Assembly (NCBI GenBank): GCA_963836075.1
Contig: CAWIIB010000009.1
Span: 2,208,311-2,272,310 of the forward strand
From: an uncultured Acidobacteriota bacterium
Lineage (GTDB): Bacteria > Acidobacteriota > JAQAZP01
Length of the DNA stretch: 64,000 nt
Direction of reading: 5' to 3'
Position numbers and translations under genes: made by a program. This document shows, in pieces, positions 1 to 64,000 of the stretch (position 1 is the stretch's first letter; every line of letters starts with the position of its first letter). The notes beneath the pieces are model-generated. The model was not told the DNA's origin, ran no database searches, and was given only the letters and a program-made list of their open reading frames with translations.

Positions 1-111
1 TGCCACTTTCACCTGCGCTGCCCGCTGGCCGAGGAGATCTGCCGGCGAACGGCTCCCGAACTGCGTGAGATCGCCGAAGGACACCGGGTCTCCTGCCACC
101 TTGCGCGGTGA
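1..111 (+). CDS. C-terminal fragment of an oligopeptide/dipeptide ABC transporter ATP-binding protein (OppD/DppF-type C-terminal domain), 5' truncated by window
   Basis: Frame 1 translates CHFHLRCPLAEEICRRTAPELREIAEGHRVSCHLAR* ; matches the conserved CxFxxRCP...C...P......H.VACH tail of Opp/Dpp ATPases; stop TGA 109-111. Confidence 0.5.
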   Translation, partial: CHFHLRCPLAEEICRRTAPELREIAEGHRVSCHLAR

Positions 112-287
112 GCCCTGACACTTCTTCAGCTTTCTTAATGAAACAAAACGGACTTGGACTGCGTATTCCCTTTGACTTCGAAGGCATGATACTTTGGTGC
201 TCGAGACATGGGCGGCAGGGGGTTGCCGCAACCCGTCGCCTGCAACCGGCGGCGCGGAATACATCCGGAATACACGGTGAGGTGAGG

Positions 288-1881
288 ATGCACATGGAGA
301 AGAGAAACTTGTATGCCGCCGGTATGATACGCTCTGCGGCGGCGGTCCTGCTGCTGATGGTCTCGGCCCTGCTCTTTCCGGCCGCGGCGACCGCGCAGGA
401 CGGGGAAGGCACGCTGGAGCTCACACTCCGGGACTGCATCGAAATCGCCCTGCAGAACAACATGGACATCGAAGTGGGCCGCTACAACCCGCAGATCTCC
501 TTCACGGCCATTGACCAGGCCTGGGGCACCTTCGACCCCGCGATCTACATCCAGGGCCGCAACACCGAGGAGGACCGGCTCTCCTACTTCGGTTACGAAG
601 TGCAGGGAACAGAGGCCTCGCGCTGGCTGGCCACCGGGTATGACCAGACCTTCACCCCGGGCACCAACATCAGCTTCGACTTCTTCCTGCGCAGCAACAC
701 CTCCGAGGAGGAGTTTCTCGGCGAGGCCTCCTCGTCCGACTCCTGGCTCGCCGACGCCCAGTTCACCGTGACCCAGCCCCTGCTGCGCAACTTCGGCCGG
801 GACCTGAACAAGCGGAACATCTACATCGCCCAGAACAATCTCGACATCTCCAACGAGATGTTCCGCGGCGAGGTGATCGATGTCCTGAACAACGTGCAGT
901 CCGCGTACTGGAACCTCAAATACACCATCGGCTGGCTCGGGGTGGAGCAGCAGTCGCTCAAGCGGGCCCAGGACCTCTACGACCTGAACAAGGTCAAGGT
1001 GGAGGTGGGCGCCCTGCCGCCCATCGAGATCACCACCGCCGAGGCGGAGGTGGCGGCGCGGCAGGTGGCGATCATCGTCGCCGAGAACGATGTCCGGGAG
1101 GCCAAGGACGCCTTGCGCAAAATACTCAACCTGCCGGCGGAGCTTTCCGACTGGGAGCGGGACGTGATCCCGGTGGACAACGCTGATTTCGACCCGGTGG
1201 ACGATCGACTGGCAGCGGGAGGTGGAACTGGCCTTCACCAACCGCCCCGACCTGATCCAGGCCCGCCTCGACCTGAAGAACAAGCTGATCGACATCGACT
1301 TCCGCGAGAACCAGATCAAGCCGGACCTCAGCCTCGAGGCCGGGTACGGTCAGGCCGGCCTGGATCAGGACCGCTACGACCAGGGAACCGGCGAGCTATT
1401 GTACAATGCCAGCCTCGGCGAGGCCCTGAAGGGGATGGTGGACGGCGACCTGATGGACTGGCACGTGGGCGCCACCTTCTCCATGCCGCTGCGCAACCGC
1501 ACGGCCAAGGCCAATTTCGCCGCGGCCAAGCTGGAGAAGACCAGGGCCGAGCTCTCGCTGCAGCGCCTGGAGCAGGATGTGATCGTGGAGGTCCGTTTCG
1601 CCATCCGGACCCTGTTGAGTTCTGCCGAACAGGTGGCGGCCTCGAAGATATCGGTCCGGCTGGCCGAAGAAAAGCTGGCCGCCGAGGGAAAGAAATTCGA
1701 AAACGGCCTGAGCACCAGCTACAATGTGGTGCTGATGCAGGAGGACCTGGTGCAGCAGCAAGCCGGGTATGCCCGAGCGCTGCTCGACTTCAAGAAGGCC
1801 GAGTACGGCCTCGAGGCGGCCAAGGGCACACTGCTGGAATACCTCGGCGTGGAGATGGCATCCACCACCGAAGACGAGTAG
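288..1881 (+). CDS. TolC-family outer membrane efflux protein, interrupted by a +1 frameshift near 1186-1215 (N-part in frame of 108..; C-part = ORF 1222..1881)
   Basis: Signal peptide MHMEKRNLYAAGMIRSAAAVLLLMVSALLFPAAATAQ, TolC-like repeats (LRDCIEIALQNNMDIEVGRY ; ...REVELAFTNRPDLIQARLDL...); frames join as DPVDDRL | EVELAFTNRPDL; RBS GAGGTGAGG before ATG 288. Confidence 0.75.
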
Positions 1882-1901
1882 TCTGGGGATACGGTCACAG
1901 C

Positions 1902-2582
1902 ATGCTGATCAGTATCGAATCCCTGGCCAAGCACTACCAGCTGGGCTCCACCCGGGTGGAGGCCCTGCGCGGCCTCGACCTGGCGGTGGAGGCCGGGGAA
2001 TACCTGGCCATCATGGGCCCCTCCGGTTCGGGCAAGTCGACACTGATGAACCTCATCGGCTGTCTCGACACTCCCACCCGCGGCTCATACCGGCTGGAAG
2101 GGAGCGAGATTTCCTCCCTTGACGACCGGCAGCTGGCCGCCATCCGCAATCGCAAAATCGGTTTCATCTTCCAGACCTTCAACCTGCTGCCGCGGATGAG
2201 CGCCCTGCACAACGTGGAGCTGCCCCTGGTCTACCGCGGCCTGCCCCCGGCCCAGCGCCGCAAGGCGGCCACCGCAGCGCTGCAGGCGGTGGGTCTGGCC
2301 GACCGGGCCGCGCACCGGCCCAGCGAACTGTCCGGCGGCCAGCGCCAGCGCACCGCCATCGCCCGCGCCCTGGTGATCAGTCCCTCCCTGCTGTTGGCCG
2401 ACGAGCCCACCGGCAACCTGGACAGCGTCACCGGCGGCGAGATTCTCGATCTCTTTGACCGGCTGAATCGCGACGGTCAAACGGTGATCCTGGTGACCCA
2501 TGAGAACGAGGTGGCCTCCCGGGCCCGCCGCCGGGTGGTGCTCCGGGACGGCCGGATCCGCTCCGACGAGCGCGCCGCCTGA
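1902..2582 (+). CDS. ABC transporter ATP-binding protein (MacB/LolD/FtsE-like ATPase), no cognate permease adjacent
   Basis: Walker A GPSGSGKST, Q-loop, signature LSGGQRQRTAIARAL, Walker B LLLADEPTGNLD, H-loop VTHE; 226 aa. Confidence 0.9.
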   Translation: MLISIESLAKHYQLGSTRVEALRGLDLAVEAGEYLAIMGPSGSGKSTLMNLIGCLDTPTRGSYRLEGSEISSLDDRQLAAIRNRKIGFIFQTFNLLPRMSALHNVELPLVYRGLPPAQRRKAATAALQAVGLADRAAHRPSELSGGQRQRTAIARALVISPSLLLADEPTGNLDSVTGGEILDLFDRLNRDGQTVILVTHENEVASRARRRVVLRDGRIRSDERAA

Positions 2583-26580: not shown

Positions 26581-26645
26581 TCATGGATAATCACTCAGCG
26601 GAACGCGGTATACTGCAGCGAACCAGCCAGGAGGGACGCCTGACC

Positions 26646-29600
26646 ATGAAGCTCGCATCCATCGGATCTGTTCTGCTCTTCCTGCTCACCGCTGTCCCGC
26701 AGTTGACGCACGCCACAAGGCTTTTCGACACGAGGATCGACCATTTCGTCGGTGCTTACCCGTTCGCCATCGACAGCAGCGATCTTGACGGTGACGGGCA
26801 CCTCGACCTGGTGGTGGCCCTCCACGGCTCGGACGGCATCTCCGTTCTTCTCGGCCTGGGGAACGGTGAATTCAGACCCGCCGTGCCATATGTGACCGAC
26901 GACAATCCCACGTCCGTGGCTGCCGCCGATTTCAACGGTGACGGTCACCCGGATGTGGCGGTGGCCAACCGGTATGGGCACAACATGTCCGTCCTCCTGG
27001 GCCAGGGGGACGGTATCCTGTCGCCGCCGGAGCACTACACCACCGGGTCCTCGCCCGAAGCTGTGATCGTCTCCGACCTTGACGGCGACACGGTGCCCGA
27101 CCTGGCCGTGGCCTGCCATTCGAGCCACGCGGTGTCAATCCTGCTCGGCAACGGGGACGGGAGCTTCCAGGCCGAGGTCCGCTACGACACCGGCTGGTAT
27201 CCCATCGATCTCGCCGTGGGGGACGTCAACGGTGACGGTGTGCCGGATCTGGCCACGGCCAGTTCGGCAGACCGCAGCGTGTCCATCCTCCCTGGCGCCG
27301 GCGATGGTTCCTTCGGGCCGCCCCAGGCCATCGAGATCGCCCAGGGCGTTTACGCCCTCGCCCTCGGTGATCTCGATGGGGACGACGTGCCCGACCTGGC
27401 CATCACAACGCACGTTTCGAGCACGAATTCGGGCGAGATCCAGATCTGGCTGAACACCGGTGGCGGCGCGTTCCAATGGAACCAGGAATGGGCGCACGGC
27501 GTCTTGCTCTACGACACCGTCATCGAGGACCTGGACGGCGACGGCTATCGGGATCTGGCGGTCACCGACATCGGATTCGCAAATGCTGAAGGCCGGGTCA
27601 CGGTGTACGCCGGCCGCGGTGACGGCACCGTGGAAGCGGCCTTAGGTCGATCATATTGGGCCGGCCTGTCCACCAATGCCGTCCACCCCGCCGATATCGA
27701 CGGCGACGGCCGTCTGGACCTGGCCGTATCGAACGCCACCAGCAGCGACATCTCCGTACTGCTGGGCAGAGCTGACGGCGCCTTCCACACCGCCCCGACG
27801 TACGGCGCGGGGTATGGCCCGAGGACCTCGGCCATTGCCGACCTCAACGGCGACAGCGTTCCCGACATCGCCGTTTCGTCATATGCCAACGGGCTCATCA
27901 AGATCCTGATCGGCGAGGGGGACGGCACCTTCCTGCCTGCCGGCCAGGTCACCGGGGCCGGCGGAAAACCGTCGGCCATCGTTGCCGACGACCTGAACGG
28001 CGACGGCATTTCCGACCTGGCCTTCACCACCCCGCTGGACGACAGCTGCTCAGTGACATTGGGCAATGGAGATGGAACGTTCCAGCCGGCGACGGACTTC
28101 GGAACCGGGGGATATCCCGACGCAATGGTGATCAGTGACCTGAACAACGACACCATCCCGGACCTGGCCGCAGCCAACATGGCCAGCGACTCGATCTCGG
28201 TGCTCCTCGGTGCGGGGGACGGCAGCTTTCTTCCGGCGCTCCACGCCGGCGCCGGTGCCGAACCGGCCGGCCTGGCCGCCGGGGACCTGGATGGCGACGG
28301 GGCCACCGACCTCGCGGTTACCAGTTCCACCGGGCATGACGTCTCCGTGCTGATCGGCAACGGTGATGGCACATTCCGGACGGCGGTGGGCTACGCGACC
28401 AGCCAGACCCCGGCCGGTGTGGCCATTGCCGATCTCAACGGCGACGGCCACCCGGACCTGGCGGTGGCCTGCCAGAACAGCAACAGGACATCGGTGCTCC
28501 TCGGCCACGGCGACGGTACCTTCCGGGAGGCGGTCGATCACTACACGCCCCACGGCCCGATATCGGTGACCGCCACCGACCTCGACCTCGACGGCTCGCT
28601 CGATCTGGTGCTGGCCTGCACAGTACGGTTCACCGTCGCCGTCCTCCGGGGACAGGGTGACGGCTCATTCATGGAAGCCGAACAGTACCGGCGTCGGGTT
28701 TCATCCGTACCATGTCTCCGCCGGCGACCTGGACCGGGACGGCCACCCGGACCTGGTGGCGGTGAACCGGTACAGCCATGATGTCTCGGTGTTGATCAAC
28801 GCCGGGAGCCCGGGGATGCTGGTGACCGGCCCTGGTCCGGGATTGGCGAACGAACCGCTGGTCAGGGTCTTCCCGCCGGTGGAGAACGCATTTCACGTTT
28901 CCGCGTTTCAGGCATATGGCGCCCCCCACTTTGGCGTGGGCGTGGCGGCCGGTGATCCAGACGGCGACGGCATCGACGTCATCATCACCGGCGCCGGCCC
29001 GGGGGCGGTTTTTGGCCCCCACATCCGCGCATTCATGGTCGACGGCACACCGGACCCCGGCATCAACTTCCTGGCCTACGGCACCAACAAGTTCGGCGTC
29101 AATGTGGCCGCCGGCGACCTGGATGGCGACGGGATCGACGAGATCGTCACCGGCGCCGGCCCGGGGGCTGTGTTCGGGCCCCACGTCCGGGGCTGGAACG
29201 TGGATGGCGGTACGGCCACGGCCATGCCCGGGGTCAGCTACTTCGCCTACGGCACGCTGAAACACGGGGTCAACGTGGCGGCCGGCGACCTGGACGGCGA
29301 CGGTTACGATGAGATCATCACCGGCGCCGGCCCGGGGGCGGTGTTCGGGCCCCATGTCCGGGGCTGGAACGTCGACGGCGGCACGGCCGCGGCCATGTCC
29401 GGGGTCAGTTTCCTGGCCTACGGCACCAACAGGTGGGGGGTCAACGTGGGTACCGGCGACATCGACGGGGACGGCATCGACGAGATCCTCACCGCGCCCG
29501 GTCCCTCGGCCCTCTTCGCCTCGCACATCCGGGGCTGGAATGCGGATGGCAGTTCCGCCACACCGCTGGCCGGCTGCAGCTTCCTCGCCTGGTCGGCAGC

Positions 29601-54106: not shown

Positions 54107-57100
54107 ATGGACATCCGCGGTACGTCTCTTCTTTGCTTCGCACTATTGATATCTGCTTCGTTCCCGCCACAACGGCCGGGCCACTGCTGTTCAACACGAG
54201 GGTCGAATTCCCGGTGGGTATCTTTCCTTCCTGCGTTGCCCTGGCCGACCTGGATGGTGATGGCCGCCAGGACCTGGCCGTGCCGAACCTGGTCAGCGAC
54301 GACGTCTCGGTGCTGCTGGGCAACGGTGACGGCACCTTTCAGGAGGCGGTGAACTACGGGGTGGATGATTCCCCTCTTGCGGTGGCCATCGGTGACCTGG
54401 ACGCGGACAGCCATCCGGACCTGGCGGTGGTGAACTATACCGACGGACTGGTCTCAGTGCTGCTGGGCCGGGGCGACGGCACTTTCGAGAACGCGGTGAA
54501 CTACGAGAGCGCCCACTCGGCCAACTCGGTGGCCATCGGCGATCTGGACGGGGATGGCCATCCGGACCTGGCGGTGGCCAACGGCGGTTTCCAGGCGGTT
54601 GCGGTTCTACTGGGCAATGGCGACGGCACCTTTCAGAGCAGGGTGAACTACAGCGCCGGTCTGGGGCCGGCATCGGTGGTCATCGGTGACCTGGACAACG
54701 ACGGTATCCCGGACCTGGCGGCGGCGAATTCCAGCCTCGACTCGGTTGCGGTGCTGCTGGGCAACGGGGACGGCACCTTCCAGACCCGTGTCCTCCACGA
54801 GACCGGGGACAGCCCGGTGGCGGTGGCCATCGTCGACCTGGAGAACGACAACTTCAAAGATCTGGTGACGGCGAGTAGAATCGGTAACAACATCTCGGTG
54901 CTGGCGGGCAACGGGGACGGCACCTTCCAGGCTGCGGTGAACTACCCGGCCGGGGACGATCCCGAAGCGCTTGCCGTCGGTGACGTGAATGACGACGGCC
55001 AGGCGGATGTGGTGGTTGCCAATCTGTCCAGCTCTGACGTCTCCATACTGCAGGGCAACGGGGATGGCACATTGCAGGTTGCCCGGCAATTCCCCATCGG
55101 CCGGGCCCCCGTTTCGGTGGCCATCGGCGACCTGGACGGCGACGGAAACCAGGACCTGACCGCGGCGACTTCCAGCTACAACTATGTCACGGTTCTGCGG
55201 GGATACGGGGACGGCACCTTTGCCACCGCAGCTGAATACGGTGTCGGCGGTCTCCCTCAATCAGTGGCCGCGGGCGAGCTGGATGGTGACGGGCGTGTGG
55301 ACCTGGTGGTGGCCAACCCCGACGAGGGCACCGTCTCGGTGCTTGCCGGCCAGGGGAACGGCAGTTTCGGCTCCGCGGTACAGCACGGTGCCGGTGCCGG
55401 GGCCTGGTCGGTGGCCATCGTCGACCTCGATGGCAACGGCAACCCGGACCTGGTCACGGCGAACTACAACGGTGACGACGTCTCGGTGTTGATGAACACG
55501 GGTGGCGGCGCCTTCGCCGCACCCGTGAATTACGGGGCCGGCAGCGGCCCATTCTCGGTGGCCGGCGATGACTTTGACAATGATGGCCACCAGGACCTGG
55601 TGGTGGCGAATTACTACGACAACAACGTGTCGGTGTTGCTGGGCAACGGTGACGGCTCCCTTCAGACGGCAAGTGACTTCGCGGTTCAGGCTTTTCCCAC
55701 GGCGGTGGTCACCGGAGACCTGAATAAAGACGGTGACCCGGACCTGGCCGTGGCCAACACGCTCGGCGACTCTGTTTCGGTACTTCTGGGTCTCGGGGAC
55801 GGCGCCTTCCAGGCGGCCGTAAACTACGGTGCAGGGAACAACCCGTATTCGCTGGCCCTCAATGACCTCGATGGCGATGGCGCCCTGGACCTGGCCGTGG
55901 CCAATAACGGCAGCGATTCCGTATCGCTGTTGCTGGGCCAGGGCGACGGCACCTTGCAGTCCGCGGTGTACTATGACACCGGCGTCGGGCCTGTCTCGGT
56001 GGCCATGGCCGACCTGGACGGCGACGGCCGGCTGGATCTGGCCGTGGCCAACCTCGACAGCGACAATGTGTCGGTGTTCCCGGGCCTGGGGGACGGCACT
56101 CTGGGGACCGCGGTGCTCTATGGTTGCGGTGAAGATCCCATCTCCATGGTGTCGGGCAACCTGAACGGTGATGGCTATCCGGACCTGGTCACGGCGGACC
56201 AGGACCAGGAGACGGTAACGGTGCTGATCAACGGCACCAGTATCTCGTCCCTTTCATCGCTCTATGTCGGTCCGGGCCCGGCCTACGACAACAGCCCCCT
56301 GGTCCGGCTGTTCCCGCCGTTGCAGGACGCAGCGGCCCAGTCCGAGTTCCCGGCATACGGCGCAACTCATTACGGCGTCAAGGTGAACAGCGGTGACCCG
56401 GACGGTGACGGAGCGGACGAGATCCTCACTGGTGCTGGTCCGGGTGACATCTACGGGCCCCACGTCCGGGGGTTCGAGGTGGACGGCACGCCCGTTCCCG
56501 GGCTCAATTTCCTGGCCTACGGCACGAACAAATACGGCGTGAATGTCGCCGCCGGCGACTTCGACGGCGACGGTTTCGACGAGATCATCACCGGTGCCGG
56601 TCCGGGTGCGGTGTTCGGGCCTCACGTGCGCGGCTGGACTTACAACGGCGGGTCAGGGGTCACTTCATTGCCCGGGGTGAGCTACTTTGCCTACGGCACG
56701 CCAAAGTGGGGAGTGAACGTGGCCGGCGGTGATATCGATGGCGACGGCTTTGACGAGATCGTCACCGGCGCCGGTCCGGGTGCGGTGTACGGCCCCCATG
56801 TGCGCGGCTGGAACGTGGACGGCGGTGCGGCGGCAGCCATACCAGCGGTGAGCTACTTCGCTTACGGCACACTGAAGTTCGGGGTCAATGTCAGCTGCGG
56901 CGATGTGGATGGCGACGGTATTGACGAGATCGTCACCGGCGCCGGTCCGGGTGCGGTGTTCGGGCCCCACGTGCGCGGCTGGAACTATGACGGGTCCGCG
57001 GTCACTTCGCTGCCCGGCTTCAGTTTCTTTGCCTGGCAGACCGAACCGCTCCGCTTCGGGGTCAATGTCTTTGCCGGAACCGACCTGGATGCCGACGGCC

Positions 57101-57255
57101 GTGACGATCTGCTGGTGGGCCGCGGGCCGGATCCCACCGCGGACAGTGAGGTGAAAGCGTTCTCCTACAACGGGTCGGCCGTGAGCCAGCTCTTTTCGCT
57201 GGACGCATTTCCGGGCCTGACCCACGGGGCCAACGTGGCGGCGGGAAAGAACTAA
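54107..57255 (+). CDS. FG-GAP/VCBS repeat-containing secreted protein (~1045 aa), paralog of 26646..29817; N-terminus may contain a frameshift (signal peptide in frame of ATG 54107, body in frame of TTG 54133)
   Basis: AAGGAGA RBS 8 nt before ATG 54107 giving MDIRGTSLLCFALLISASF signal; body ORF 54133..57255 with >15 FG-GAP units and C-terminal GAGPGAVFGPHVRGWN repeats. Confidence 0.8.
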
Positions 57256-57259
57256 TACG

Positions 57260-58693
57260 TTACCCCTTGATCACCGCCAGTGGCACCAGTCGGGCCACCT
57301 TGCGCGAGATCCCCGAGAGGTGCACCGCTTGCACCACGTCCTCCACGTCCTTGTAAGCTTCGGGCATCTCTTCGGCCAGGGTGCCCTTGCCCCTGGCGCG
57401 GACGTGAATCCCCCGGTCGGAGAGCTCGAAGGCGATGGTGCGCTCCCGGGCGGCCTTCCTGGCCTGGCGGCGGCTCATCACCCGGCCGGCGCCGTGGCAG
57501 GTGCTGCCGAAGGTGGTCTCCATGGCCTTGGCCGTGCCTGAAAGCACGTAGGAGCAGGAGCCCATGTCCCCGGGAATCAGCACCGGCTGGCCCACCGCGC
57601 GATAGGCCGCAGGGACTTCCGGGCGGCCGGGGCCGAAGGCGCGGGTGGCCCCCTTGCGGTGCACCATCAGTGTACGCTCCCGTCCCTCGAAAGTGTGCCG
57701 TTCCTTTTTGGCGATGTTGTGGCAGACGTCGTAGACCAGGCCCATGCCCAGGTCGCGCGGGCCGGCCTGGAAGACCTTCTGGAAGATCTCACGGGTCAGG
57801 TGGCTCATCGCCTGGCGGTTGGCGAAGGCGTAGTTGGTGGCGCAGGCCATGGCCGCCATGTAGTCCCTGGCCTCCCGGGAACCGATCGGCGCGCAGGCCA
57901 GCTGGCGGTCGGGCAGGTCTCTTCTGCCGCTGCGCACCAGCTGTTTGAGATAGTCGTCGCAGACCTGGTAGCCCAGGCCGCGGGACCCGGAGTGGATCAT
58001 CACGGTGATGCCGCCCTCGGCCAGACCGTAGGCCGCGGCCGCGGTCTCGTCGAACACGGTGTCCACCAAACCCACCTCGATGAAGTGGTTGCCCGAGCCG
58101 AGGGTCCCCAGCTGGTTGCGGCCCCTTTCCAGGGCCCGCCTGCTCACGGCTGCGGGATCGGCCTCGGGGAGGCAGCCCCGCTCCTCCATGTATTCCAGGT
58201 CGCTCTGCTGGCCGTAACCGTTCTTCACCGTCCAGGCCGCGCCCTGGGACAGCACTTTGAGCTGGTCAGCAGGGGAGAGGCGGATGGCGCCGCTGGAGCC
58301 CACGCCGCAGGGCACCCCGTTGAACAGCGCATCGGCCAGTGCGCGGATCCGCGGTTTCACCGTCTCCAGGTCCAGCCTGGTGCGCATCAACCGCACACCG
58401 CAGTTGATGTCGTAGCCCACGCCGCCGGGCGAGATGATCCCCTCGTCGAGATCGAAGGCCGCCACCCCGCCGATGGGGAAACCATAGCCCCAGTGGATGT
58501 CCGGCATGGCCAGCGAGTAGCCGACGATGCCCGGCAACTGGGCCACGTTGGTCAACTGGTCCAGGGCCTGGTCCTTGCGGATCTGGTCCAGGGCCGATTC
58601 ACGGGCGAAGAACCGGGCCGGCACCCGCATCCGGCCCCGTTTCCCGATCTCCCAGGTGCACTCGCCGATCTTCTTGAATCCTGCGCCGCTCAT
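57260..58693 (-). CDS. rtcB: RNA-splicing ligase RtcB
   Basis: 477 aa; ...GYDINCGVR..., SGSRGLGYQ, HNIAKKE, GHGAGR motifs characteristic of RtcB. Confidence 0.9.
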   Translation of the reverse strand: MSGAGFKKIGECTWEIGKRGRMRVPARFFARESALDQIRKDQALDQLTNVAQLPGIVGYSLAMPDIHWGYGFPIGGVAAFDLDEGIISPGGVGYDINCGVRLMRTRLDLETVKPRIRALADALFNGVPCGVGSSGAIRLSPADQLKVLSQGAAWTVKNGYGQQSDLEYMEERGCLPEADPAAVSRRALERGRNQLGTLGSGNHFIEVGLVDTVFDETAAAAYGLAEGGITVMIHSGSRGLGYQVCDDYLKQLVRSGRRDLPDRQLACAPIGSREARDYMAAMACATNYAFANRQAMSHLTREIFQKVFQAGPRDLGMGLVYDVCHNIAKKERHTFEGRERTLMVHRKGATRAFGPGRPEVPAAYRAVGQPVLIPGDMGSCSYVLSGTAKAMETTFGSTCHGAGRVMSRRQARKAARERTIAFELSDRGIHVRARGKGTLAEEMPEAYKDVEDVVQAVHLSGISRKVARLVPLAVIKG

Positions 58694-58714
58694 CCCCGGG
58701 GCCTCTACTTCTGT

Positions 58715-59146
58715 TCAGACGTCGAAGAGCAGGGTGGCCTCCAGCAGGCCGCCGTTCTCCCGGATGCCTGACTGGTGGTAGGTCACCGCCTTGATCTCGC
58801 AACCTGGGCGGCCTGTCCGCCGCATGATGCACTCGGCCCGCAGGCGTGTCTGGCCCAGCTGCTGAAAAGTGATCGCGTGGGGGATCAGATGTCGGGTATC
58901 GGCATGGAAGTGCAGTTCCCCCAGCCAGCGCACCAGCAGGTCGTCCGGGTCCAGGCCGTCGAGATCGATGTCGATCCGGGCGGCAAGGGACTGCGCGCCA
59001 CCCGTGGTTCCCTCGTCGGGGAACAGGGTGTCGAACAGCGCCCGGGCGGCCTGCCGGAAGAGACTTTCCCGGTCGGGGGCCCAGAGGCGGATACGCAGGT
59101 CCGCCGGGTGGTCCACCATCTCATATCCGGCCTCCGGGATTTCCAT
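58715..59146 (-). CDS. Archease (RtcB activator)
   Basis: 143 aa; MEIPEAGYEMVDHPADLRIRLWAPDRESLFRQAARALF...KAVTYH...; immediately upstream of rtcB in same orientation. Confidence 0.8.
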   Translation of the reverse strand: MEIPEAGYEMVDHPADLRIRLWAPDRESLFRQAARALFDTLFPDEGTTGGAQSLAARIDIDLDGLDPDDLLVRWLGELHFHADTRHLIPHAITFQQLGQTRLRAECIMRRTGRPGCEIKAVTYHQSGIRENGGLLEATLLFDV

Positions 59147-59223
59147 AACAGCACGGTTCCTTCATTGCCAAACGGTTCGCAAGCTGGTCATTTGAATAGT
59201 ATTATTGTACAGGAATCCGCCTG

Positions 59224-62200
59224 GTGACAAGTGAGGACAAGCCCCTGGCCCATAAGAAACCAAGTACAGAAGCGAAGAAATCGAGGAAGATTCTGTCAGC
59301 GTTCCGCTTCTCCCGAATCGGGCTGGCGGCCAGGATCGCCGGGGCGGTGATCATTCTTTTCTCCATTCTGTTGCTCTACCTCGTGTTCGGGTCGCCCAGC
59401 AGCCGCATCACCTCCAGTCTGCTCACCGGCCTGGTGGAGAAGTATTTCGCCCCGGGGTCGGGGTTTCAGGCGCTGAACCTCGACTTCTATTCGGGCGAAC
59501 TGCTTATCTCGGGCATCCAGCTCGAGATTCCACCCGATCCCGAGGCCCTGCCCACCGCCGAGGGCCCGGCCCCCGGCTGCTCGCTCACCCTGGAGTCCCT
59601 GCGCTTCGCCTTCGGCCCCTCCTTCCACAGGCCTTTCACCTTCGGGGCGCACCAGTTGGATCTCGACGGTCTCGACGTGGATATGGAGCACCATTCGCTG
59701 ATGGCCTTTGTCAACCGCTTCCGCAAGCGGGATAAGAAACCGCCGCGGGACTTCTCGATCAGCCTTCCCGGGGCCAGTATCCGGCGGGCGGTCTTCCGCT
59801 TCGGGCGGCACGAGATTCCCCTGGACATCGAGGTTCGGAACATCAAAGTGTCGCTGGCCCCCACGGACAGCCGCGAGGTCGTCGAGGGCGTGGTGCAGTG
59901 CGGGCCGGGCATGGTGGACGCCAACGGCTACCGCTTTCCGGTGGACTCGCTGGTGGCCGCGGCGGGCCTCGACCTCAGCGGTGTCCGGGTGCGTCACCTG
60001 GAGCTCTCCTCGCCGGTGGCCCAGCTGACCGGCGACGGGGTCATCGGCTTCCGGCGCTACGGAGAGGTTCCCCGGCGGCTGGCCATCCAGGGCGTCTGCC
60101 GGCTGGAACGGGTGGCCCGCTACACCCGGCTGCCCTTTGGTCTGACCGGCAGCGCGGCGCTGGATCTGGAGCTCATCGGCAAGTGGGGCGAGCCGGACGA
60201 GACCGGGCTCTGGACCCTCAGCGGCACCGTCTCCGGTAACCGGGCATGGATCGATGACCTGCCGCTGGATGACTACACCATCCTCGCCGAGGTGGGCAGC
60301 GCCGGGTTGACCGTGCACCGTTTCGACACCGGGCTGTTCGACGGTCGTTGCCGCGGGGCGGGCAGCCTCTTCCCGCTCAACACCCGGGGAGTGCTGGAGG
60401 CCACGCTGGAACTGGACAAGGTCAGCCTGCCGCAGGTCCAGCCCTGGATCCAGCTGGGAGAGGAGTGGCCTCAGGGGCTGGTCAGCGGCCAGGTCGCCGG
60501 GACGATGCCGGTGAAAAACTGGACCGACCTGGTGGCCGCGGGTGATCTGGTGGTGGACTCCGGCCAGAGAAAGGGCACTTTGCAGGCCATGGGCCCCCCC
60601 TCGTTGCGGGGCCGGGTGGCCTTCCACGCCTTCCAGGGGACGCTGCAGTTCCAGGAGAGCTCGCTGGTGGTGGGGCAGACCGCCGTCCAGTTCTCCGGGC
60701 CTCTCAGTCTGGAGGGCGGTGGATCCCGGGTCAACATCCGGTTGGTTGCCGATGACCTGCGCCGCAGCAAGAACACCCTGGAGCGGATCTTCGGGCCGCG
60801 GTATCCCACGCTCCGTGACGGGGAGGGGCGGACGCCGCTGTCCATGGCCGGGGTGCTGGAGTTCGACGCCACCCTGGTTCGCGAGGAGGGCGGGCCGTTC
60901 CGTTTCGAGGGCTGGATGCGGGGCGACAGTCTCCAGCTGGCCGGGTTCCGGCTGGGGCAGACCGACGGCCGTTTCCACCTGGACCCGGAGCGCTTCGAGC
61001 TGCGCGACCTGGTGTTGGGTGGTGACGGGGTCAACGGCACGGTGGACTATTTCGGCTGGCGGCTGGGGCGGCGTGGTGCCGGCGACGAGGAGCCGGGTGC
61101 GGAAACGGAGAAAGAGCGGGATCTCGTTCTGCAAGTGGATGACCGGATGGCCGGGCCGGCCGTTTACGGCATTCTCGGCCCCCTCGACCCGCTGATCGGG
61201 ATACGCTGCGACCTGACCGGTATTCCCCTGGCCACGGTCAGCAACCTGCTGCCCATGCCGCCGGTCAGCGGCGATCCGGCTGATGTCCAGCTGGCTCTCG
61301 ACCGGTCCGACCCCTTCTCCCCACTGGCCGGCTGGGGGCTGGTGGAGAGCGGCAGCTGGGACCTCGATCAGTGGCGCTTCGGCACCACCAGGGCCGGGGT
61401 GGAGGTGGACGGCGACGGGGTCCGCTGGCACGGTGAGATCGGGGGGAACGGGCGGATGAGCATCTCCGGGTGGATCGAGCCGGGGTTCCATGACGTCCAC
61501 TTTCGCTGCAACGGATCGGCAGTGGAGTTTGCCGGTGCCTGCACCGTACTGGTGGACGAGGAGACCGGCGAGCCGTATTTCCGGGCGCCTCTGGACTTCA
61601 CCGGGCACGGTTCCTATGACGGGGGCCGGTTCTCCCTGCGGGGCGGCTTCTATTTCCCCTGGCTGGCCTCGGGGGCCAACCTGCTGGGCCCGGGCAAGGC
61701 GAGTCTGGCCATGAACGGGGATATCTGGCGGCTGGAGCTGGAGCCGGAAACCGGAAGCGGCCGCATACGTGGGATGCTTTTTGCCGATGGTCACAACTGG
61801 CCGCTCTGGCTGGCCGGCGAACTCTCCTCGCTCCGCGTGCGGCAGTGCGAAGAGGACGCCACCGTTCCCCAGTTCATCCCCGGCCAGTGGGCCGAGCTCA
61901 CCGGCCGGGTCTGGCTCCGCGGGCCGGGAGCCGTGGCCCGGCGGATGGTGCTCGGCGGCCTGGTGGAGCACTGCCTGGTCAGCACGTCGGAGTACTACCG
62001 TCTGGAGAGCCGCGGCGCCTTCCCCATCCTGATGGACCAGGGCGTGCGCAGCCTGAAGGTGCCCCGGGCCAGCTTCCAGGGGCCGGGGGGGTCGCGGATC
62101 AGCGCCGGCGGCCGGTTGGCCTTCGAGGGTGTGCCCACGCCTTCCGACATGTTGCTCCTCGGCTCCTTCGACCTCGACGGCCTCGGTATCTCCCGCGAGA

Positions 62201-64000
62201 CCTACCAGCTCAGCGGCTCGGGGATGGCCGAGCTGCAACTGGGCGGTTACTACCCCCACCTGACCCAGACCGGCCGGGTGGACCTCACCGGCGGCAAGCT
62301 GACCCTGCCCCAGATCCACTTCGCCTGCACCGGCATCGAAGCGGCCATCGCCCTCGAACCGGACCGTCTCGAACTGCTGAGCATGAGCGGCCGGATTGGT
62401 GGCGGGCCGGTGAGCGGCAGCGGCACCCTCCACTTCGGCCGGGACTACTCGGCGGAATCGTTCCGCTTCGAGGCCGTCGGTCGGGACATGGTGCTGGCCT
62501 ACCCGGAGAAGGTGAGCACCCTCTTCGACGCCGACCTGGTGTTGGAAGGGGACCGGCAGGGGCACACCCTCTCCGGCCGGGGCCTGATCCGCCGCACTGT
62601 TTACAGCGGGTCGGTGTTCATCGAGGAGGAGGAACCGTTGCTGGTCGACGACCCGGTCTCCTCGGGGGAGGAAGAGATCGACTGGCTGGGACGGCTGGCC
62701 CTCGATCTGACACTGGAGGCGCCGGACAACCTCTTTATCCGCAGCGAGGAGGGCACGGTGCAGTTCGCCGGCAGCCTCGAGGTTGGACAGACCTTTGCCG
62801 AACCCCGGATTACCGGTACGGTGACCTCGGTTCCTGGCGGCCGGTTCCTGTTCCGCGACATCGAGTACGACGTGGAGGAGGCGCGGGTCGATTTCATCGA
62901 TCCCACCGGGGTGCAGCCGGTGCTCTACCTCAAGGCTTCCACAACCGTGGACACCTACCTGATCACCCTGGTGGCCGACGGTCCCTTCGAGGACCTCTCC
63001 TTCGAGGTCACCTCGGTACCTCGGCTCAATGACCGGGACATCATTTCGCTGCTGGCCTTCGGCCGTCTCAGCTCCGAGATGCCCGGGATCGAGGGGGCGG
63101 CGCTGGCCGGCCAGGAGGTGACCTCCTACTTCACCGGCGGGTTCACCGGTGAACTGCAATCGGTGTTCAAGGAGGCCTTCGGGCTCACCCGCTTCGAGAT
63201 CCAGCCGATGTTCCTCGAGGGGACCACCGACCCCACCGCCCGCATCACCGTGGGCAAGGACCTCTCCGAAGACCTTTTCTTCACCTACTCCACCAGCCTG
63301 ACGAACGTCGAGGAAACGCTGGTGCTGCTGCGCTACCGCTTTGACGAGCGGATGGCCCTGCTCGGCTCCCGGGAGCAGGACGGGTCGTACGGCGCCGACT
63401 TTCAGTACCGCACCACCATGAGTTTTGCCCAGGGCAAGGATAAGAGGTTGTGGGACAGCCTCCTGGGCCGGCGCAGCCGCACGTCCCCTGACCAGGGAAC
63501 CGCCGCCGACGGCTCTCCCCGGCCGCGGGTGGGCCGGATCAGCTTTGCCGAACCGGAGCAGCTTCCGGTGAAACAGGAGAAACTGGCCGGCAAGCTCAAG
63601 GTGCGATCCGGGGACCTGGTGGAAGCCAAGCGGCTGGTGGACGACCAGGAAAGGCTCACCAAATTCCTGCTCAAGCAGGGGCACCTCCGCTGCCGGGTGA
63701 AGCTGGACCGGCTGCCGCGGGAGACCGCCAGGGCCGATGAGCCGTTAACCGATCTGGTCTGGACCGTGAACGCCGGGCCGCGCTACGGGGTGAAGTACCG
63801 CGGGGGCCGTGTCCCCCTGGGGATGAAAGGAAAGATCCGCAAACTCTGGTCCGGGGAGGCGTTTTTCGATGACAACATCCGCCGGGCCCGGGAGATGCTG
63901 GCCCAGCACTTCCGGCACAAGGGCTTCCCCGACGCCGAGGTGACGGCGGTGCAGGAGCCGGCGGAGGACCGGACGGACCTGGTCTTCGTGGTGCGGGAGG
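59224..64000 (+). CDS. Giant TamB/AsmA-like translocation-and-assembly-module protein continuing, without stop, into POTRA-like (Omp85/TamA-type) domains; 3' end beyond window (>1590 aa). Missing from supplied ORF track
   Basis: Uninterrupted frame (codon phase of 59224) checked at 60001, 61021, 62041, 63001, 63901; N-terminal signal anchor ILSAFRFSRIGLAARIAGAVIILFSILLLYLVFG; DUF490-like C-terminal block ...RITVGKDLSEDLFFTYSTSLTNVEETLVLLRYRFDERMALLGSREQDGSYGADFQYRTTMSF; then linker and POTRA-like units (RVGRISFAEPEQLPV...LVDDQERLTKFLLKQGHLRCRVKLDRLP...DLVWTVNAGPRYGVKYRGG...). Confidence 0.75.
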   Translation, partial: MTSEDKPLAHKKPSTEAKKSRKILSAFRFSRIGLAARIAGAVIILFSILLLYLVFGSPSSRITSSLLTGLVEKYFAPGSGFQALNLDFYSGELLISGIQLEIPPDPEALPTAEGPAPGCSLTLESLRFAFGPSFHRPFTFGAHQLDLDGLDVDMEHHSLMAFVNRFRKRDKKPPRDFSISLPGASIRRAVFRFGRHEIPLDIEVRNIKVSLAPTDSREVVEGVVQCGPGMVDANGYRFPVDSLVAAAGLDLSGVRVRHLELSSPVAQLTGDGVIGFRRYGEVPRRLAIQGVCRLERVARYTRLPFGLTGSAALDLELIGKWGEPDETGLWTLSGTVSGNRAWIDDLPLDDYTILAEVGSAGLTVHRFDTGLFDGRCRGAGSLFPLNTRGVLEATLELDKVSLPQVQPWIQLGEEWPQGLVSGQVAGTMPVKNWTDLVAAGDLVVDSGQRKGTLQAMGPPSLRGRVAFHAFQGTLQFQESSLVVGQTAVQFSGPLSLEGGGSRVNIRLVADDLRRSKNTLERIFGPRYPTLRDGEGRTPLSMAGVLEFDATLVREEGGPFRFEGWMRGDSLQLAGFRLGQTDGRFHLDPERFELRDLVLGGDGVNGTVDYFGWRLGRRGAGDEEPGAETEKERDLVLQVDDRMAGPAVYGILGPLDPLIGIRCDLTGIPLATVSNLLPMPPVSGDPADVQLALDRSDPFSPLAGWGLVESGSWDLDQWRFGTTRAGVEVDGDGVRWHGEIGGNGRMSISGWIEPGFHDVHFRCNGSAVEFAGACTVLVDEETGEPYFRAPLDFTGHGSYDGGRFSLRGGFYFPWLASGANLLGPGKASLAMNGDIWRLELEPETGSGRIRGMLFADGHNWPLWLAGELSSLRVRQCEEDATVPQFIPGQWAELTGRVWLRGPGAVARRMVLGGLVEHCLVSTSEYYRLESRGAFPILMDQGVRSLKVPRASFQGPGGSRISAGGRLAFEGVPTPSDMLLLGSFDLDGLGISRETYQLSGSGMAELQLGGYYPHLTQTGRVDLTGGKLTLPQIHFACTGIEAAIALEPDRLELLSMSGRIGGGPVSGSGTLHFGRDYSAESFRFEAVGRDMVLAYPEKVSTLFDADLVLEGDRQGHTLSGRGLIRRTVYSGSVFIEEEEPLLVDDPVSSGEEEIDWLGRLALDLTLEAPDNLFIRSEEGTVQFAGSLEVGQTFAEPRITGTVTSVPGGRFLFRDIEYDVEEARVDFIDPTGVQPVLYLKASTTVDTYLITLVADGPFEDLSFEVTSVPRLNDRDIISLLAFGRLSSEMPGIEGAALAGQEVTSYFTGGFTGELQSVFKEAFGLTRFEIQPMFLEGTTDPTARITVGKDLSEDLFFTYSTSLTNVEETLVLLRYRFDERMALLGSREQDGSYGADFQYRTTMSFAQGKDKRLWDSLLGRRSRTSPDQGTAADGSPRPRVGRISFAEPEQLPVKQEKLAGKLKVRSGDLVEAKRLVDDQERLTKFLLKQGHLRCRVKLDRLPRETARADEPLTDLVWTVNAGPRYGVKYRGGRVPLGMKGKIRKLWSGEAFFDDNIRRAREMLAQHFRHKGFPDAEVTAVQEPAEDRTDLVFVVRE

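Follow-up and report, generated by a model that had tools for sequence, protein, structure and literature searches.

The last 4777 nucleotides (nt) of the 64,000-nt stretch analysed here (the window; contig CAWIIB010000009.1 of an uncultured Acidobacteriota bacterium) carry the greater part of a gene that joins a TamB-like protein in frame to an Omp85 protein. The complete product runs from a signal-anchor helix through a long beta-rich region, a TamB/DUF490 domain and a 36-residue linker to five POTRA domains and a 16-strand Omp85 barrel. We read it as a single-chain, TamB-BamA-like bridge from the inner to the outer membrane, equivalent to a covalently joined translocation and assembly module (TAM), and give this reading a probability of roughly 75%. 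The fusion is a real, conserved and apparently undescribed variant of the known TamB-Omp85 system. An initial annotation, made from the letters of the window, had supposed such a fusion to be undescribed, and this agrees with the openly searchable literature (subscription-only papers fall outside that scope), where we found no description of a natural TamB-Omp85 fusion; it is absent from a survey of the Omp85 superfamily, a paper on TAM evolution, a 2024 TAM review, and a 2026 cryo-electron microscopy (cryo-EM) preprint. Public gene callers already predict the fusion as one protein and its Pfam domains are precomputed; the fusion proteins, of about 2100-2300 amino acids (aa), are named inconsistently as 'TamB domain-containing protein', 'BamA', 'YaeT', or 'TamA'.

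From a GTG codon at 59224 to position 64000 on the plus strand, frame 1 holds 1592 codons with zero stops in the translation of the window, against 34 and 22 stops in the other two plus-strand frames over the same stretch (59224-64000). Stop-codon reassignment or read-through was considered and is needless, since the frame contains no stop whatsoever. The G+C content at the first, second and third codon positions (GC1, GC2 and GC3) is 0.683, 0.472 and 0.876, with a GC3 of 0.90 in the neighbouring RtcB gene. The window product is identical to the public protein P0155 at 1592 of 1592 residues and shares its GTG start; P0155 has 2181 aa and is encoded on an NCBI/ENA contig of 3,516,849 bp. All that is said below about the part beyond the window rests on this 100% protein identity, and from the size of P0155 the gene is predicted to end about 1769 nt past the window end. 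Relatives, 6735 in all, were collected with HMMER by searching exhaustively through 1.84 billion representative proteins, and a follow-up search with the best match returned P0155. The program-made list of open reading frames (ORFs) omits those that run off the window end, and the fusion gene is missing from it because it crosses that end. The list has instead a minus-strand ORF of 1462 aa (59296..63684), whose GC1 of 0.878 and GC3 of 0.684 mirror the codon-position pattern of the plus strand; because of this mirrored pattern, we identify it as an antisense shadow of the plus-strand gene in GC-rich DNA, not a gene. The initial annotation was right on both counts, having described an uninterrupted plus-strand frame of more than 1590 codons from GTG 59224 to the window end and having dismissed the minus-strand ORF as junk.

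The features of the gene within the window are as follows.

59224..64000, plus strand: fusion gene, first 4777 nt (1592 of 2181 codons), from the open frame, identity to P0155, GC3 of 0.876, and Pfam matches.
59211..59215, plus strand: AGGAA, a Shine-Dalgarno-like motif read from the sequence.
59317..59391, plus strand: signal-anchor helix, aa 32-56, IGLAARIAGAVIILFSILLLYLVFG, from the Kyte-Doolittle profile; a Lys/Arg-rich cytoplasmic tail precedes it.
59392..62382, plus strand: long beta-rich periplasmic region, aa 57-1053, matched by the N-terminal hidden Markov model (HMM) of the family with 382 bits.
62383..63426, plus strand: TamB/DUF490 domain, aa 1054-1401, PF04357 with 133.2 bits.
63427..63534, plus strand: fusion linker, aa 1402-1437, AQGKDKRLWDSLLGRRSRTSPDQGTAADGSPRPRVG, 36 residues, from three-frame translation, the predicted local distance difference test (pLDDT), and the alignment of relatives.
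63535..63771, plus strand: POTRA 1, about aa 1438-1516, PF07244 best stretch aa 1434-1503, model residues 396-477.
63784..63999, plus strand: POTRA 2, about aa 1521-1592, almost complete where the window ends, second PF07244 stretch, model residues 482-552.

The AGGA core of the first motif ends 9 nt upstream of the GTG start and lies in the AT-richer divergent intergenic region shared with the archease gene (GC 0.59 at 59000-59499); we regard AGGAA as a putative ribosome-binding site.

The helix at aa 32-56 is the sole hydrophobic helix in the 2181 aa of P0155: 19-residue Kyte-Doolittle windows above 1.6 start only at aa 29-44 and peak at 2.72. It would be located in the inner membrane. The region that follows (aa 57-1053) is presumed to be a lipid-groove bridge of the AsmA/TamB type, and in the equivalent region distant fused relatives match the Pfam families AsmA, YhdP or DUF748. 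PF04357 aligns to aa 1054-1397 over model positions 3-379 of 381, far above the Pfam gathering cutoff of 22.4 bits, and the last DUF490 strand, ...ADFQYRTTMSF, is beta-signal-like and ends in Phe 1401. In the window product PF07244 matches two stretches from aa 1434 onwards with 36-44 bits (cutoff 21.3); past the window, P0155 has three further POTRA matches (five in all) and a PF01103 match at aa 1879-2181 with 179.7 bits. The barrel contains the VRGF motif of loop 6 ('...GGSNTVRGF...') and closes the protein with a terminal Phe ('...YLSIGNSF'). An AlphaFold model of aa 1040-2181, built on a 38-sequence alignment, has a mean pLDDT of 76 and displays a beta-taco, helices, six terminal DUF490 strands, the linker, five beta-alpha-alpha-beta-beta POTRAs and 16 barrel strands, aa 1040-1400 being nearly all beta-strand. 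The initial annotation had named an N-terminal signal-anchor helix, a TamB-like DUF490 block and at least two POTRA-like units, all of which are borne out. It had also proposed HMM searches for TamB and POTRA, a search for an Omp85 barrel after the POTRAs, and an AlphaFold model of the junction: both Pfam models score above their cutoffs, the barrel is present, and in the model a low-confidence linker joins two folded modules.

Canonical TamBs stop 3-8 residues past DUF490; in P0155, a further 780 residues follow Phe 1401 and the DUF490 strand has no free C-terminal end, unlike in canonical TamBs. Because canonical and neighbouring unfused TamBs stop at the equivalent place, we set the fusion point at Phe 1401, which, judged by this comparison, marks where the ancestral TamB ended. 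Disorder is predicted for the linker (model residues 363-392, pLDDT below 50). It contains no stop, no start codon with a signal peptide and no hydrophobic stretch, the highest Kyte-Doolittle value near the junction being -0.48, and there is no start codon with a signal peptide in any alternative frame between 63250 and 63720. The Omp85 part has no cleavable signal peptide of its own, with nothing hydrophobic between Phe 1401 and POTRA 1 in any frame. This matches what the initial annotation had claimed for the junction, namely a linker of some 40 residues in place of a stop, and neither signal peptide nor start codon between the two parts.

That annotation had also raised the concern that a missed stop or an indel might be hidden at the junction, in which case separate tamB and omp85 genes would have been merged artificially in this assembly. 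Indels or pseudogenes do occur in the window, where a TolC-like gene appears to change frame near 1100-1220; the relic-looking 'GATAAGAGGTTG' after the TamB end could be taken in the same sense, as could a locus from another genome (L014) in which tamB and omp85 share a frame and are parted only by one TGA. Close relatives with 65-81% identity, from independent JGI, ENA and NCBI assemblies, speak against it. A single ORF of about 2150-2200 aa is found in L001 (JGI), L002-L004 (NCBI GCA_964623175.1 and two ENA assemblies), L005 (JGI), and L006-L007 (metagenome-assembled genomes (MAGs) that are species representatives), and it is uninterrupted in at least five independent assemblies of relatives. 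From the TDPTAR motif to WSGEAFF, the junction segments of five relatives measure 642, 645, 648, 648 and 651 nt without in-frame stops; because the indels come only in multiples of three, all size changes preserve the frame. GC3 stays high in one and the same frame throughout, at 0.80-0.96 in all 150-nt windows spanning the DUF490/POTRA junction and at 0.80-0.88 over the linker, and a signal peptide for a separate Omp85 appears in no frame. As a negative control we used ORF 108..2582 (plus strand, 824 aa, matches to OEP (TolC-like) and ABC ATPase), in which the high-GC3 frame switches twice, passing from frame 0 into frame 1 near 1100-1220 and returning near 1900 to frame 0. Among the 150 best 50%-identity representatives, moreover, DUF490 and the barrel share one chain in 103, lying 420-546 residues apart (median 449); about 8 others are truncated fused proteins, and about 37 are TamBs of the classical kind, ending 3-8 residues past DUF490. 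An assembly or sequencing artefact is thereby effectively refuted.

The first half of the linker is conserved in the five relatives ('SFAQGKDKxLWDSLxGR') and its second half is variable in both sequence and length. Measured from the end of the HMM match, the linkers of 120 fused proteins have 17-44 aa (median 24); Arg, Gly, Pro and Ala abound in them, and a single one of the 120 is hydrophobic.

The full-length relatives combine TamB, POTRA and Omp85, with the Omp85 part reaching the C-terminus, and even distant members (25-30% identity) have the complete architecture, including N-terminal AsmA, YhdP or DUF748 matches. For the taxonomic distribution, the GTDB species representatives were scanned with two specific peptide patterns and the resulting loci, at least 44, were classified with the family HMMs. 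One-ORF loci are L006 (from a MAG), L007, L008, L010 and L020 from Acidobacteriota, and L009 from Ca. Polarisedimenticolia. MAGs of the fused clade include CBESOE01, JAQAZP01, JBBIHH01, JBOGOC01, JBBIHW01 and JACPPM01. Adjacent but separate genes in the order tamB-omp85 are found in Thermoanaerobaculia, Luteitalea, 'Multivoradales', bacterium HR10 and others, and the order omp85-tamB in Terriglobia (L019, L021). The unfused acidobacterial tamB products end in an aromatic residue (...RKRF, ...EKSF, ...RHVF), and in the unfused pairs omp85 starts -18 to +12 nt from the tamB stop and encodes an obvious signal peptide. In a simple neighbour-joining tree of 255 DUF490 domains, 149 of the 151 fused sequences fall into one block, and Fitch parsimony counts five changes. 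The exceptions are one fused protein truncated in the linker, and P0159 and P0169, which are fused and nested among unfused sequences; because of that position, the latter two suggest extra independent fusions. Taken together, these data show that the fusion architecture is ancient, that selection has kept it in a large clade made up mainly or wholly of Acidobacteriota, and that it arose from an adjacent tamB-omp85 pair when the tamB stop codon and the Omp85 signal peptide were lost. The initial reading of one in-frame chain in this gene thus stands, with the refinement that the fusion is not unique to this genome and belongs to a large old clade.

Several of the unfused loci deserve a separate remark. 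In bacterium HR10 (L014 4955-12172, BEHM01000002.1) the tamB and omp85 genes lie in the same frame with one TGA between them, and the Omp85 start is 7 nt past the stop; a single point mutation would fuse the pair into one ORF, though the signal peptide would remain inside. The MAG CALILB01 ('uncultured bacterium N4_Bin_METABAT__140_1') has two separate tamB-omp85 pairs on different contigs (L015 and L033), which reflects either true duplication of the module or a bin of mixed origin. In the Acidobacteriota MAG CAWJEO01 (L048 4047-11069), the tamB-omp85 region is broken into at least seven short ORFs matching parts of the family HMM, and is either a decayed pseudogene or the product of an error-rich long-read assembly.

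By its profile and fold matches the Omp85 part is BamA-like, not TamA-like. The C-terminal 745 residues of P0155 pass the BamA equivalog model TIGR03303 by a narrow margin (302.8 bits, cutoff 297.15) and fail the TamA model NF047950 (101.2 bits, cutoff 625), and they have five POTRAs instead of the three required by that model. The best PDB sequence matches of this part are BamA chains, and the top Foldseek matches are full-length, five-POTRA BamA structures, with E. coli BamA aligned over about 820 columns (E about 1e-47). The initial annotation, which had named TamA as the usual separate partner of TamB, was correct as to an Omp85 partner, whose type is here refined. In the solved TAM complex the family profile recognises both chains, TamA (9xdc_A) with 149 bits and E. 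coli TamB (9xdc_B) with 115 bits, the alignment to E. coli TamB being confined to residues 846-1195; a phmmer search of the PDB sequences with DUF490 plus linker gave no match.

With five POTRAs, a pass in the BamA model, and BamA as its closest PDB match by both sequence and fold, the Omp85 part might be the organism's only and essential BamA, an insertase core tethered to the inner membrane through TamB. This would be a fused counterpart of the situation in Borrelia, where TamB reportedly works with the only BamA of the cell (PMC5582053, PMC11361582, PMC4494059); a second Omp85 is, besides, absent from the 64-kb window. Acidobacteria, however, have a canonical BamA as well as a duplicated BamA that lies in an operon with TamB and groups with TamA and TamL (Heinz et al. 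2015, PMC4494059). A 748-aa BamA so named by NCBI, from a Vicinamibacteria MAG and hence from another genome, has only 24% identity (61 bits) to the fused Omp85, whereas about 230-240 bits against it are reached by Omp85s of about 970 aa, a length like that of the tamB-adjacent type. A housekeeping bamA typically stands in a bamA-skp-lpxD neighbourhood, and no family of the skp or lpx type was found among the called neighbours in the syntenic loci of the relatives (L001-L005). We consider a sole, essential BamA quite improbable; by analogy with the reported operon, the fused Omp85 is probably the TamB-associated 'duplicated BamA' of Acidobacteria, not the housekeeping BamA.

The unfused tamB-adjacent Omp85s (L012-L038; P0240-P0245) have about 950-1000 aa, with about 200 extra residues before the region that aligns to POTRA 1-2 of BamA, an extension in keeping with the 6-7 POTRA-like units that Heinz et al. 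described (PMC4494059). The fused proteins have only five POTRAs, and fusion was therefore accompanied by the loss (or non-gain) of this N-terminal extension.

Export through Sec, insertion of barrels by BAM (the beta-barrel assembly machinery) and bridging of the periplasm by a groove are established elements of TamB and Omp85 biogenesis. Applied to the fused protein, they suggest that the N-terminal helix would be retained in the inner membrane while Sec exports all that lies downstream of this anchor, that BAM would insert the barrel into the outer membrane, and that the beta-rich groove would bridge the periplasm. The strand '...ADFQYRTTMSF', as the presumed equivalent of the DUF490 beta-signal strand of E. 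coli, would end at the periplasmic face of the outer membrane, from where the linker would loop back to POTRA 1. The terminal DUF490 strands could then dock on beta1 of the protein's own barrel, at about aa 1855-1864, and form a hybrid barrel like that of E. coli TamB-TamA, leaving a permanent 1:1 bridge that would carry phospholipids and perhaps assist some outer-membrane proteins, as TAM does. Such docking within the same chain is plausible by analogy with E. coli TAM, in which the C-terminal beta-signal strand of DUF490 pairs with beta1 of TamA and six TamB strands lie in the outer membrane, forming a stable and functional hybrid barrel that supports phospholipid transport (PMC13119328). 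We thus see the fused protein as likely to be a covalently joined TAM, a lipid and/or outer-membrane-protein machine that spans the envelope.

Several points weigh against this single-chain bridge. The family is known solely from sequences and predicted models, and its intactness after export is a prediction. Pfam, AsmA and Chorein families included, finds no match in aa 57-1053 of P0155. The scores of the BamA model overlap among paralogues (355 bits for the NCBI-named BamA, 269-413 for the tamB-adjacent Omp85s, 303 for the fused protein). Some linkers extend only about 13-19 residues past the aromatic end, and such short linkers, with P0182 and P0164 as examples, might geometrically strain a hybrid barrel formed in cis with a five-POTRA arm. 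Finally, the neighbour-joining tree of DUF490 carries no support values. Sorting the BamA paralogues by HMM score was also tried and fails, the scores being non-discriminating.

Another possibility is a polyprotein precursor, translated and exported as one chain and then cut in the linker by a periplasmic protease into an ordinary two-subunit TamB-Omp85 complex. The predicted disorder of the linker (pLDDT below 50), its richness in Arg, Gly and Pro and its variable second half would suit a cleavage site, and a gene for an HtrA-type Trypsin-PDZ protease lies a few kb upstream in the syntenic loci, a weak association. Yet conservation of the linker's first half points to something beyond a cleavable spacer, the linker is very short in many members, a conserved cleavage motif is not apparent, and a permanent fusion accounts for the lost signal peptide just as well. 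To our knowledge such processing is without precedent among TamB and Omp85 proteins, and we consider a cleaved precursor unlikely.

Within the single-chain bridge, the Omp85 barrel may have a restricted role. Its lateral gate would be filled for life by the protein's own DUF490 strands, so that it could not work as a general insertase; permanently occupied, it would be dedicated to anchoring the chain in the outer membrane and to serving as an exit port for lipids, a proposal we make tentatively and do not favour over its negation. [quoted passage not shown]

One of the closest known systems is E. coli TAM itself (TamA/YtfM and TamB/YtfN; 9xdc, PMC13119328), which likewise combines an inner-membrane-anchored beta-taco protein, ending in a DUF490 with helices, then six strands and a beta-signal-like final strand, with a POTRA-bearing, 16-strand Omp85 partner. 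The Acidobacteriota protein differs in being one polypeptide with a 36-aa linker and an Omp85 part without signal peptide, in having five POTRAs where TamA has three (with the TamA model failing at 101 bits against 625), and in having the TamB part first, whereas the E. coli gene order is tamA-tamB. The acidobacterial TamB-operon BamA (PMC4494059) comes from the same phylum and also pairs TamB with a BamA-like paralogue, as do the adjacent genes of the unfused relatives found here. There, however, the genes are separate, in the order BamA-TamB, and some encode 6-7 POTRA-like units; the protein described here has the order TamB-then-Omp85, is fused, and has five POTRAs and no signal peptide. 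In Borrelia burgdorferi (PMC5582053, PMC11361582), tamB (BB0794) lies upstream of a five-POTRA BamA-type gene (BB0795), in the same order as the two parts here, and the C-terminal domain of TamB reportedly binds the BamA POTRAs, a contact that may have its counterpart within the fused chain. The Borrelia proteins, however, are two, and that BamA is the only, essential copy, a status that the Omp85 part here probably lacks. The fused LptF/G-LptA-LptD-like protein of Thermotoga maritima (PMC10160955) is alike in concept, as a multi-subunit envelope-spanning machine made into one polypeptide, and differs in belonging to an unrelated Lpt-pathway family in another phylum, without TamB or Omp85 domains.

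Debate on TAM concerns whether it is chiefly an insertase of outer-membrane proteins or a phospholipid bridge, and whether the hybrid barrel persists stably as a working state or forms only transiently (PMC13119328). An old fusion kept by selection argues, independently of experiment, for TamB and Omp85 as an obligate and permanent 1:1 unit; it further argues that TamB's C-terminus and the N-terminal end of the POTRA arm can be near each other, and that a tether to an inner-membrane anchor need not keep the Omp85 partner from the outer membrane. The fusion also lends support to regarding the acidobacterial 'duplicated BamA' as a functioning analogue of TamA, and enlarges the small set of known envelope-spanning machines made of one polypeptide, to which the Thermotoga Lpt fusion belongs. 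As a design idea, joining TamB to TamA through a linker in a single chain might stabilise the complex for use in cryo-EM or reconstitution.

The surroundings of the gene are conserved as well. In the loci with listed gene calls (L001-L005), the fusion gene adjoins the archease and RtcB genes, which are transcribed divergently from it, and a gene of the MBL fold comes next downstream. In the window, the genes for the RtcB RNA ligase and its archease activator (57260-59146, minus strand) lie directly upstream, divergent from the fusion gene, and no functional link between RtcB/archease and the fusion gene is evident. Two FG-GAP/VCBS-repeat proteins are encoded on the plus strand at 54133-57255 (1040 aa) and 26583-28781 (732 aa), with 13 and 11 FG-GAP_3 stretches, respectively; similar FG-GAP proteins are found downstream of the fusion gene in the relatives L002-L005. 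At the other end of the window, ORF 108..2582 was examined as a second real fusion (OEP-ABC) and rejected, its GC3 frame switches being those expected of a false fusion. The stretch 108-2582 suggests a frameshifted TolC-like gene (a pseudogene or an assembly indel), of which ORF 1222..1881 is probably the second half, and after it a separate MacB-type ATPase gene that begins with 'MLISIESLAKHYQ'.

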